Virus record (IMG/VR): IMGVR_UViG_3300030433_000856
Span: 1 to 59,509 of that record
Length of the DNA: 59,509 bases
Source of the DNA: a virus
Lineage: Duplodnaviria; Caudoviricetes
Direction: 5' to 3' (one strand)
A program made the position numbers and the translations under genes. The notes under the pieces were generated by a model. That model did not search any database. It saw only the letters and a program-made list of their open reading frames with translations, and was not told the DNA's origin. Shown here piece after piece: positions 800 through 3,380 of the stretch (position 1 is its first letter; each line of letters begins with the position of its first letter).

Positions 800-1711
800 A
801 TGGCAATATCTAGAAGTCAATTAGTGAAAGAGTTAGAGCCAGGTTTAAATGCCTTGTTCGGACTAGAGTATAATCGTTACGAAAATGAACACGCAGAAAT
901 TTTTGTAACTGAAACCTCTGACAGAGCTTTTGAAGAAGAAGTAATGTTAAGTGGTTTTGGTTCAGCTCCAGTAAAGTCAGAAGGTGCAAATGTAACTTTT
1001 GACCAAGCTACTGAATCATTTACAGCTAGATACACACACGAAACTATCGCAATGGCTTTTGCAATTACTGAAGAAGCTATTGAAGATAATTTGTATGATA
1101 GACTAGCTGGTAGATACACAAGAGCTTTAGCTAGAAGTATGGCAAATACTAAACAAGTTAAATCTGCTAATGTTCTTAACAATGCTTTCAACAGCAGTTT
1201 TACTGGTGGAGATGGTGTGGAGCTTTGCTCTACTTCTCATCCATTGGCGAGTGGAGGTGTATTAGCTAATACATTAAGCACCGCTGCTGATTTAAGCGAA
1301 ACATCATTGGAACAGTCATTAATAGACATCGCTGCATTCATTGATGAGAGAGGTTTGAAGATTGCTCTTCAAGGTGTGAAGTTAATAATTCCTAAGGAGT
1401 TACAATTCACAGCAGAGAGAATTATGAAGTCTCCTCAAAGAGTGGGTACTGCTGACAATGACATTAATGCTTTAGCCAATATGGGGATGATACCTCAAGG
1501 CTATAGAGTTAATCATTATCTTACAGATACCGATGCTTTTTTTATTATGACTGATGCTCCTAATGGATTAAAGATGTTCGTTAGAAGCCCAATTAAAACT
1601 GCAATCGAAGGGGACTTTGATACTGGTAATGTTAGATTTAAAGCAAGAGAGAGATACTCTTTTGGTTTTTCTGACCCAAGAGGTATTTTTGGTTCTCCAG
1701 GTGCAGCATAA
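800..1711 (+). CDS. Major capsid protein, Mu gpT-like HK97 fold (allele A)
   Basis: MAISRSQLVKELEPGLNALFGLEY...KARERYSFGFSDPRG is typical of uvMED/pelagiphage MCPs; SD AAGGAG; followed by a terminator. Confidence 0.92.
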   Translation: MAISRSQLVKELEPGLNALFGLEYNRYENEHAEIFVTETSDRAFEEEVMLSGFGSAPVKSEGANVTFDQATESFTARYTHETIAMAFAITEEAIEDNLYDRLAGRYTRALARSMANTKQVKSANVLNNAFNSSFTGGDGVELCSTSHPLASGGVLANTLSTAADLSETSLEQSLIDIAAFIDERGLKIALQGVKLIIPKELQFTAERIMKSPQRVGTADNDINALANMGMIPQGYRVNHYLTDTDAFFIMTDAPNGLKMFVRSPIKTAIEGDFDTGNVRFKARERYSFGFSDPRGIFGSPGAA

Positions 1712-1906: not shown

Positions 1907-2212
1907 CTAAAGTTTTACGACTTGATAAATTTTCTTAGTCTTAGGTTTAACTATTAAATAGTTTTCAATAGCCATTCTTGCTCTAACACCTTTACCTATA
2001 AAAATAGCTCTTGGTAAATAATTCTTTGAAGCATATTTCAAACCAGCTTTTAATTCTCTATCTTCATATTGTGGTAATACTTTTTTTAACTTATAAAATG
2101 TATTGTTACCTTTTTCTATAAATGGTTTTATATCTAAAGCTACTCTTTCTTTAAATGCTTTAGTTAACTTCATGGTTCGTTGTTTGTCGTTTATAAACAT
2201 GTTTACCTCCAC
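1907..2212 (-). CDS. Hypothetical basic protein (start probably 2200)
   Basis: Part of the leftward operon; GGAGG precedes the second Met. Confidence 0.75.
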   Translation of the reverse strand: MEVNMFINDKQRTMKLTKAFKERVALDIKPFIEKGNNTFYKLKKVLPQYEDRELKAGLKYASKNYLPRAIFIGKGVRARMAIENYLIVKPKTKKIYQVVKL

Positions 2213-2478
2213 TTCTTTATAAATTTTTCTAACTGTCTTTTTTCTCTCTTGATGGTTTTGTATTCTACATCCCCTTCTTCATAACCAAAGGTATCTTCTA
2301 AATTTTCATTAGCCATATCCAACCTGTTCTTGGCTTCAGCTATAATAATATCTTTAGTGTAGTAGCCTAACATACCTTCAAATGAACCATCATGAAATCC
2401 ACATTCATGGTCAACTTCTTGTAATTGATTTACTAACTCATCTACTTTCATTGCGTCTTTTAATACTTCTTTTAACAT
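2203..2478 (-). CDS. Hypothetical protein, first gene of a leftward early cassette
   Basis: AACAAAGGAG leader and a consensus promoter upstream. Confidence 0.8.
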   Translation of the reverse strand: MLKEVLKDAMKVDELVNQLQEVDHECGFHDGSFEGMLGYYTKDIIIAEAKNRLDMANENLEDTFGYEEGDVEYKTIKREKRQLEKFIKKWR

Positions 2479-2504
2479 ATTTAACTCCTTTGTTGTTATA
2501 TACT

Positions 2505-2532
2505 ATTATAGCATACTGACCATTAAAGTCAA
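2505..2532 (-). promoter_or_regulatory. Strong sigma70-type promoter
   Basis: TTGACT-16-TATAAT with extended -10 TG. Confidence 0.8.
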
Positions 2533-2670: not shown

Positions 2671-2677
2671 GTATACT
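2649..2677 (+). promoter_or_regulatory. Putative promoter embedded in the terminator hairpin
   Basis: TTACAT-17-TATACT; predicted start about 2684, at the 5' edge of the structured RNA. Confidence 0.45.
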
Positions 2678-2683
2678 GTTATT

Positions 2684-2755
2684 ACCAAGAATTAATAACG
2701 GATATAGACTGGCTTGGCAGACAACCCTAGAGGACTATATCTACAACTAGGAGAT
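2684..2755 (+). ncRNA. Structured leader RNA with two potential pseudoknots (Mu-gpT-DE-like context)
   Basis: GATATAG(2701)/CTATATC(2735); CTG/CAG; CCAAG(2685)/CTTGG(2713); CCTAG(2726)/CTAGG(2747, overlaps the SD). Confidence 0.65.
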
Positions 2756-2759
2756 AATT

Positions 2760-3380
2760 ATGGGAACTACAACTTTTTCAGGTCCAGTCCGTTCTGAGAA
2801 CGGATTTCAAACTATAACAAAAAACGCAACCACTGGTGCAATCACTGTAACTAGTGGAGATAAGATGGCAGTGGAAGCTACTGGTGGTGCTGGTATTGAA
2901 GGCACTGCTGCGGTTTATGTTACACAAGTAAATAGATTAAAAAGCGATGTTACTACAAATGTTAATATTGTAGAAACTAAAATTATGATTGATTTGACTG
3001 GTCTTAAAGATGGAGGCACTGCTGGTGATATTATCGGTAAAGATGGATCTGGTGTTGCTTTTATTGGGCAAGTAACAACTGCAAACCAAGGAACTGTTTT
3101 TGGGGTAACGATGGCTTGTCTTGAAACACCTGCTGGTGGTAGCACAGATATTGATTTATTTTCGGCAACTGAAGGCACTGGTGTTAATGACACTGCAATC
3201 GGTGATCTTACTGAAACACAAATTATTAATGCTGGTGCAGCATCTGCTGGTACAGTAGTCGCTGGTGGTGATATAGCCGCTGACCAGTTTTTATATTTGG
3301 TAAGTCAAGGTACTGGCGATGCTACTTATACTGCTGGTAGATTTTTAATAACGATTACTGGTTTTGATGCAGCTAGTTAA
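2760..3380 (+). CDS. Putative virion/capsid decoration protein
   Basis: MGTTTFSGPVRSENGF N-terminus typical of post-MCP genes in this group; G/T/A-rich. Confidence 0.65.
   Translation: MGTTTFSGPVRSENGFQTITKNATTGAITVTSGDKMAVEATGGAGIEGTAAVYVTQVNRLKSDVTTNVNIVETKIMIDLTGLKDGGTAGDIIGKDGSGVAFIGQVTTANQGTVFGVTMACLETPAGGSTDIDLFSATEGTGVNDTAIGDLTETQIINAGAASAGTVVAGGDIAADQFLYLVSQGTGDATYTAGRFLITITGFDAAS

Follow-up and report, generated by a model that had tools for sequence, protein, structure and literature searches.

The window analyzed here, i.e., the whole stretch of 59,509 nucleotides, is a complete 59.5-kb virus record and represents the genome of an HTVC023P-type pelagiphage. Its major capsid gene shares 74.5% nucleotide identity with gp40 of Pelagibacter phage HTVC023P, while its score against PF10124 (Mu-like_gpT), 19.3 bits, falls under the cut-off of 20.1. 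A structured leader element lies between this gene and the post-capsid ORF, in a region with the following features.

800..1711, plus strand: major capsid gene (PF25209, Pfam Phage_capsid_4, 48.6 bits)
1729-1761: terminator-like hairpin, 3′ of the capsid gene
1907..2532, minus strand: inserted cassette of two ORFs (1907-2478) of 101 and 91 aa that overlap by 10 nt
2639-2665, scoring on both strands: terminator-like hairpin, directly 5′ of the -10-like box
2672-2677, plus strand: -10-like hexamer TATACT, with a predicted transcript start at about 2684
2685-2751, plus strand: leader element, upstream of the ORF's ATG at 2760
2749-2753, plus strand: Shine-Dalgarno sequence AGGAG
2760..3380, plus strand: ORF of 206 aa, the putatively regulated gene

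The cassette stands here between the capsid gene and the leader, within an insert of 966 nt, and is flanked on both sides by hairpins that score as terminators. It carries a near-consensus and strong promoter-like site at 2532..2505 (TTGACT-16-TATAAT, with TG in front), and no family match was found for its ORFs apart from one NCBIfam match far below threshold (16.1 bits against a cut-off of 400).

Fold of the leader and its conservation among relatives

The proposed fold comprises a main helix, a small hairpin and two pseudoknots, PK1 and PK2, built from the following segments.

2685-2689, plus strand: 5′ strand of PK1, CCAAG, pairing with CTTGG at 2713-2717
2700..2707, plus strand: 5′ strand of the main helix, GGATATAG, whose closing G pairs with C2735
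2708..2722, plus strand: core, consisting of A2708, the hairpin, its loop and AC at 2721-2722
2726-2730, plus strand: 5′ strand of PK2, CCTAG, followed by the junction AGGA at 2731-2734
2735..2742, plus strand: 3′ strand of the main helix, CTATATCT
2747-2751, plus strand: 3′ strand of PK2, CTAGG, sharing three bases with the Shine-Dalgarno sequence AGGAG

In the main helix, GATATAG (2701-2707) is complementary to CTATATC (2735-2741), and addition of G2700-T2742 brings the total to eight pairs. The hairpin has only 3 bp (CTG/CAG, 2709-2711 and 2718-2720), and its loop consists of a G followed by CTTGG, the latter serving as the 3′ strand of PK1. The four pairings described in an earlier note on this DNA can thus all be read directly in the window's sequence. 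Folding of the window's element by itself gives a nested minimum free energy of -12.4 kcal/mol (z = -0.80), a value equaled by 39 of 200 shuffled sequences; the program considers nested structures only, with pseudoknots not modeled, and single-sequence folding is uninformative here. The case that the fold is more than chance is based instead on the comparison of relatives.

One such relative is the cultured phage HTVC023P, where the same arrangement follows the capsid terminator, with compensating changes in three of the helices. A covariance model of the two nested helices (R1) was built on 24 instances, drawing upon 80 capsid-anchored loci collected from viral contigs, and a search with it recovered both the window's element and copies in 55 of 81 loci. 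Two other, weak matches proved to be false and were discarded. A scan of viral contigs with the core pattern returned at least 120 stretches, with 68 true instances among the 80 loci listed. The same scan of cellular genomes yielded one true instance among 80 listed loci (L236), the rest being chance matches. In total, at least 122 instances, comprising 112 distinct sequences, were found among the matches listed. The cellular instance is a capsid-leader-gene module on a contig of 83.8 kb that was assigned by binning to a Chitinophagales metagenome-assembled genome, and it could represent a prophage, a mis-binned phage or a phage group that reaches beyond SAR11.

The nested helices were assessed in an unfitted MAFFT alignment of 51 relatives. 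Here, 89.3% of the paired cells hold complementary bases versus 62.7% in shuffles, and the covariation score of 0.725 (0.212 in shuffles) was reached by none of 500 shuffles; controls in which the structure was slid along the same alignment gave 22-40% paired. Every one of the nine aligned main-helix pairs shows changes on both sides, with 94.3% of the cells complementary. The first C-G pair of the hairpin is invariant, while pairs 2 and 3 covary (CUG/CAG, CAG/CUG, CCG/CGG and CGA/UCG). Outside of the helices, A2708 is invariant and AC 2721-2722 near-invariant among the relatives.

The pseudoknots were evaluated by a structural parse with shuffled controls and by equal-length subsets, because the MAFFT alignments (A1 and A4) hold the 5′ strand of PK1 and the 3′ strand of PK2 out of register between clades. 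PK1 forms perfectly (5/5) in 103 of 105 parsed instances, compared with 6.3% when the upstream sequence is shuffled, and a PK2 of 6 bp or more forms in 67 of 105, compared with 11% in shuffles. The parse also revealed 25 sequence types for PK1 and 40 for PK2. In gapless, equal-length subsets, every cell pairs (100%) for both PK1 (24 distinct sequences; 5/5 pairs double-changed) and PK2 (11 distinct sequences; 6/6 pairs double-changed); these subsets, like a 37-sequence alignment of the shorter leader discussed below, were picked by helix-derived spacing and are therefore fitted to the model. Permutation of loops between instances proved to be a poor control, as many loops share CTAG and 21% of permutations still gave 5 bp. 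Covariation had been set as a test in the earlier note, and compensatory changes are seen in all four helices across more than 100 distinct relatives.

Within the main helix and hairpin, G-U combinations outnumber A-C combinations by 31 to 4 in the unfitted alignment, an excess that fits an RNA of plus-strand sequence. A DNA palindrome or protein-binding site was rejected as an explanation in view of this excess and of the interleaved helices, which cannot form a DNA cruciform. A coding-level cause of the conservation was also rejected, since no ORF lies over 2520-2759 and synonymous sites vary freely. The latter was observed in codons 2-16 of the downstream ORF and argues that constraint at the RNA level ends near the start codon.

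Several variations on the fold were encountered in individual clades. In three loci (L001, L019 and L020), PK1 is CCUAG:CUAGG and PK2 is GUAUAG:CUAUAC, while in three others (L017, L024 and L027) PK1 is CUAUAC:GUAUAG and PK2 is CCUAG:CUAGG, so that the two duplexes have swapped roles. In GC-rich relatives (L038, L056, L064, L110 and L160), the CCGGG strand of PK1 could alternatively pair with the 5′ start of the main helix (CCGG/CCCGG), and this alternative hairpin, absent from the window, may conceivably act as a switch. In a further clade (L065, L100, L104, L142, L144 and others), the second main-helix pair is a retained C-U mismatch (13 C-T cells in alignment A4), where a relative, L075, has G-U.

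Attachment to the post-capsid gene and its start region

Among the matches listed, the end of the element coincides with the start of an ORF in 124 of 124 rows, and nothing is ever inserted between the two. The ORFs of these rows begin with M-(A/G)-x-T-T-F-x-G-P-V, and an HTVC023P-type capsid gene lies upstream in 118 of the 124; two rows have no upstream DNA, in three the large ORF that precedes the element is another one (portal-like in two of them), and in a further row (L093) only the capsid C-terminus is present at the edge of the locus, followed by ~1.1 kb with an HNH-like ORF. The distance from the capsid gene to the element is 26-133 nt in most rows and 330-966 nt in 21 of the 118 listed capsid-matched rows (19 contigs). 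Likewise, in HTVC027P, which like HTVC023P is in culture and carries the element in the same form as the window (hereafter the long form), the distance is ~550 nt and two small ORFs lie in between. The earlier observation that the element stayed with its downstream gene despite an insertion therefore extends to the relatives, as the inserts always lie upstream of the element. Considering the unrelated inserts of 330-724 nt in 19 other contigs and in HTVC027P, together with the HNH-like ORF of L093, the capsid-to-leader gap looks like an insertion hot spot.

The protein encoded by the post-capsid gene has a conserved N-terminus, MGTTTFSGPVRSENGF in the window, and a hypervariable remainder. Across the family, the N-terminus follows the pattern M-A-N-T-T-F-x-G-P-V, with a conserved stretch of 16-30 residues and a hypervariable rest of 130-315 aa. 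Database relatives of the window's protein number 1928, all of them unnamed and marine. It gave no match to Pfam, NCBIfam or PADLOC, its only PHROG match is a family of unknown function, and no tblastn match was obtained in isolate phages. An AlphaFold model of the protein is all-beta and of moderate confidence (mean pLDDT of 61.8); a Foldseek search of the PDB with this model returned nothing at E<=0.001, and its matches in BFVD were limited to uncharacterized phage proteins and weak, tail-fibre-like rows. A conserved N-terminus joined to a variable rest would suit a virion protein that is both anchored and exposed, and such a role is predicted here.

The earlier note also placed a promoter at the element's 5′ edge. 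In the window, TATACT ends 7 nt before CCAAG and the promoter match is 9/12, but a promoter scan of the window found nine promoter-like sites when 8.9 were expected, so that alone it is no evidence. What gives the box its weight is the conservation of its position, not its scan score: a hexamer matching TATAAT in at least five of six positions lies upstream of PK1 with a spacing of exactly 7 nt in 33 of 102 relatives, and of 6-10 nt in 54 of them, with each of the other offsets from 0 to 34 accounting for four relatives at most. In roughly half of the relatives, transcription from such a box would begin on the fold's first base. An extended -10 reading was dropped, since the TG directly adjoins the hexamer and leaves no base between them. 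One clade lacks a -10-like box altogether and its element abuts the capsid terminator, which means that the leader is not always 5′-terminal. With regard to transcripts, one contig from a metatranscriptome library covers 2699-2944, across the leader/ORF border, although contigs from RNA libraries cannot prove transcription. In contigs assembled from four sequencing runs (small word shares), positions 1728-2687 are uncovered, which proves nothing.

The 3′ strand of PK2 is without exception located in the region of translation start, at a position that varies. Among the 104 listed instances, it overlaps the Shine-Dalgarno sequence by 1-4 nt in 42 (3 nt in the window). In 23 and 15 instances it stops short of that sequence by 0-3 and 4-9 nt, respectively, and in another 23 it falls on the start codon; one instance has no recognizable Shine-Dalgarno sequence. 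The Shine-Dalgarno sequence is thus formally free, with PK2 falling 0-9 nt short, in 38 of 104, and simple occlusion is not the conserved feature. The occlusion originally proposed for the window is real in that three of five Shine-Dalgarno bases are paired, but it is partial and not uniform across the family. One clade with the long form keeps a GCCA paired with AUGGC.

Relationship to the Mu-gpT-DE motif

The Mu-gpT-DE motif (Weinberg 2017) was reportedly named for its position downstream of Mu-gpT-like capsid genes, and it is said to have been an orphan in Rfam since 2017. Its model, RF03012, has 53 positions, is typed "Gene; sRNA" in Rfam, and has a consensus that ends in GGAG...AUG of the next gene. 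A literature search found no functional study of the motif, and the name was met only in versions of the CaCoFold paper, where the available portion of the supplement lists two extra covarying pairs for it, of loop/non-Watson-Crick types, not new pseudoknots.

The earlier note suggested that the window's element is a member or an analogue of Mu-gpT-DE and proposed a cmscan against Rfam as a check. That scan gave no RF03012 match in the window at or above the gathering score (49 bits), and none on the element, or anywhere in 1600-2900, at E<=10; three matches at E<=10 lie elsewhere in the genome, the best with 13.5 bits. RF03012 also misses the loci of nine relatives with the long form. Membership is accordingly not borne out, but the analogy is, and more strongly than had been claimed. 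At the same position in phages with capsids 77-79% identical, RF03012 does match (73.9 bits in L039 and 65.9 bits in L035). Moreover, the capsid-anchored loci that lack an R1 match include five missed variants of the long form, five with a shorter leader and three with other hairpins; of the remaining 13 R1-negative loci, seven are cut within 120 nt and six have 252-613 nt with no recognizable ORF start. The pattern drawn up for this shorter leader matched at least 80 loci, representing 77 distinct sequences among the matches listed. When 20 of these loci were tested as a positive control, RF03012 matched all 20, 16 of them at or above the gathering score. The shorter leader, or short form, is Mu-gpT-DE, as judged by the scores of RF03012; model R1, for its part, does not score it.

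The short form also contacts its translation start. Rfam's own structure pairs CCUG with CAGG of CAGGAG, so that the outer helix covers the Shine-Dalgarno sequence. In addition, an internal NCCA is complementary to AUGGN at the start codon. The variable base is concordant in 76 of 76 listed instances (GCCA/GGC in 68 and CCCA/GGG in eight), with one further instance having a UUG start, and in the fitted 37-sequence alignment the corresponding pair is GC in 32, CG in five and unpaired in none. The base after AUGG lies beyond the RF03012 model, which ends at AUG. The start-codon pairing appears to be a previously unmodeled part of the short form, and the long form represents a second architecture at this locus.

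The two forms share their genomic setting, with the same capsid family before them and the same M-A-N-T-T-F-x-G-P gene after them. They also share the order of parts at the junction, namely a helix-closing G, a single A, a hairpin closed by C-G and an AC, followed by a strand that pairs downstream, an AGA-type step and the C of the outer helix. The junction of Mu-gpT-DE reads AC-A-N2-5-NCCA-(A/C)GA and that of the window AC-AAC-CCTAG-AGGA, with the pairing strand in the same slot. Both forms pair with their own translation start region, and the 3′ end of the Rfam model itself holds the Shine-Dalgarno sequence and AUG. The forms differ in how the helices are completed. With only 3 bp, the window's hairpin relies for completion on the 5′ tail that forms PK1; PK1 is absent from Mu-gpT-DE, where the hairpin is self-sufficient. 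The window's outer helix has 8 bp and does not include the Shine-Dalgarno sequence, unlike that of Mu-gpT-DE, and its downstream partner is CTAGG at the Shine-Dalgarno sequence, whereas the partner in Mu-gpT-DE is UGGN at the start codon.

In a capsid tree, the two forms interleave. The short form requires at least three changes, and one phage with the short form is sister to two with the long form, with support of 100/99. Homology of the forms is argued from the locus, the order of parts and the shared bases, not from a model score, and we infer on these grounds that the long form is a larger, double-pseudoknot variant on the three-helix plan of Mu-gpT-DE. Leaders can differ even behind identical capsid proteins: in a comparison of L046 with L049 (and of L080), one of two contigs with identical capsid proteins has the long form, while the other has only a hairpin with a UUCG tetraloop, flanked by GA...AC, before the Shine-Dalgarno sequence.

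Some of these elements may already have been recorded without a name. PMC10690425 presents a catalogue of 8,495 unnamed viral RNA candidates from intergenic regions of IMG/VR, the collection from which relatives of the window's element were found in part. In its table, ~43 entries have Pelagibacterales hosts, e.g., DNAVirus_3569 (88 nt, 359 sequences) and DNAVirus_3568 (57 nt, 297 sequences); in the accessible text, entries of this kind come with neither a structure nor a context or function. The long form is perhaps among them. The terms intergenic, pseudoknot, noncoding and promoter do not occur in what is available of PMC9599517, a genomics paper on HTVC023P-type phages, and the available part of PMC12753301, which covers the abundance of the group and an RNA-seq series of HTVC027P infection, does not mention the element.

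Proposed function and significance

The comparison of relatives establishes the structure, its conservation and strand, its fixed attachment to one gene family and its pairing with the start region. Taken together, these properties make it probable that the element is a cis-acting leader that ties up bases of the start region and limits or gates translation of the post-capsid gene. The 5′ translational regulator proposed at the outset is thus the best-supported reading, on grounds that are comparative. In such a scheme, the leader would form the 5′ end of the mRNA of the post-capsid virion gene in HTVC023P-type phages and fold into three helical units: the main helix, the 3-bp hairpin stacked longer by PK1, and PK2 reaching to the start region. 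The folded state would hinder 30S binding and set or gate the output of the downstream protein, a repressive role suggested by the geometry. By analogy with other phage assembly genes, a trans-acting factor might stabilize or open the fold; candidates are the capsid protein and the protein encoded by the gene itself.

Pseudoknots at the ribosome-binding site are well known from the leader of T4 gene 32 and from the operator of E. coli rpsO (S15). The window's element resembles these systems in having a 5′ leader pseudoknot next to or over the ribosome-binding site of a gene whose product is needed in controlled amounts. Those operators are bound by their own gene products, a role that is only a candidate one for the window's element, and the likeness is topological. 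Similarly, preQ1-II, SAM-II and SAM-V are pseudoknot riboswitches that sequester the Shine-Dalgarno sequence. They are likewise small, with a pseudoknot helix made from bases of the ribosome-binding site; in the window, however, the gene is a predicted virion protein gene, not a metabolic one, and no Rfam match was found for the element. The T4 gene 32 leader is also mentioned in the accessible text of PMC10690425.

Several points weigh against the preferred reading of a translational gate, among them the 38 instances with a formally free Shine-Dalgarno sequence, the clade that lacks a -10-like box and the unremarkable stability of the window's nested fold. A structure beside the Shine-Dalgarno sequence could equally enhance initiation or position or entrap the ribosome, and a plain attenuator needs neither invariant unpaired bases nor a double pseudoknot. 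So elaborate a fold, with unpaired bases that do not vary, hints at a binding partner; given the association with a single structural gene, this would more probably be a virion protein than a metabolite. A bolder proposal, which we advance tentatively and regard as doubtful, is that the long form and Mu-gpT-DE act as an assembly-state switch, in which binding of a virion protein would lock the Shine-Dalgarno sequence or start codon in the pseudoknot. The binder may be the conserved N-terminal anchor of the gene's own hypervariable product or free capsid protein. A new ligand-sensing or self-cleaving class would be a comparably bold reading. Covariation is uninformative on autogenous binding, since neither the conserved 16 aa at the N-terminus nor the invariant bases of the RNA vary.

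Enhancement would follow if the leader instead were an mRNA-stabilizing or translation-enhancing 5′ structure that protects the 5′ end and GGAG or presents the Shine-Dalgarno sequence. The predicted start at the fold's first base in about half of the relatives and the unpaired Shine-Dalgarno sequence just 3′ of PK2 in the 38 instances noted above are what one might expect from such a structure. The short form, however, pairs both the Shine-Dalgarno sequence and the start codon, which is hard to fit with enhancement, and the clade whose element abuts a terminator does not have it in a 5′-terminal position, so that we consider this account unlikely. Quite unlikely, in our estimation, is a metabolite or ion riboswitch, whose ligand would stabilize the double pseudoknot and close the ribosome-binding site. 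The small pseudoknotted fold, the unpaired and invariant A2708, the AC at 2721-2722, the AGA-type junction and the pairing with the start region all recall riboswitches, yet the element is tied to a single family of structural genes with no metabolic link, no Rfam riboswitch model matched the element or the loci of nine relatives, and no ligand can be inferred.

A self-cleaving ribozyme or processing site, splitting the downstream message from the capsid transcript, is brought to mind by the double-pseudoknot topology, by three repeated G-A-C junction steps and by the location between a very highly expressed gene and a neighbor likely needed less. It is nonetheless very improbable, considering that no Rfam ribozyme matched (E<=10 in the window and E<=1 in the relatives), that no cleavage site can be named, and that many copies apparently have a promoter of their own and would not need processing. 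Finally, a trans-acting small RNA, as implied by the Rfam type "Gene; sRNA" and by the terminator-like hairpin nearby, is scarcely credible, given that no terminator follows the element, which runs into a Shine-Dalgarno sequence and ATG in all listed rows, and that the Rfam model itself ends in GGAG...AUG.

The family is therefore best read as a cis-acting translational leader and not as a free sRNA, and both of its forms look like cis control of the translation of a hypervariable virion gene. The interchangeable forms also constitute a natural case in which a tail-loop pseudoknot appears to have taken the place of a hairpin without a change in the overall plan. With HTVC023P and HTVC027P in culture and carrying the long form, experiments are within reach. 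Were the assembly-state switch true, the most abundant pelagiphage group of the ocean would be tying the output of a surface protein to the assembly of its capsids.
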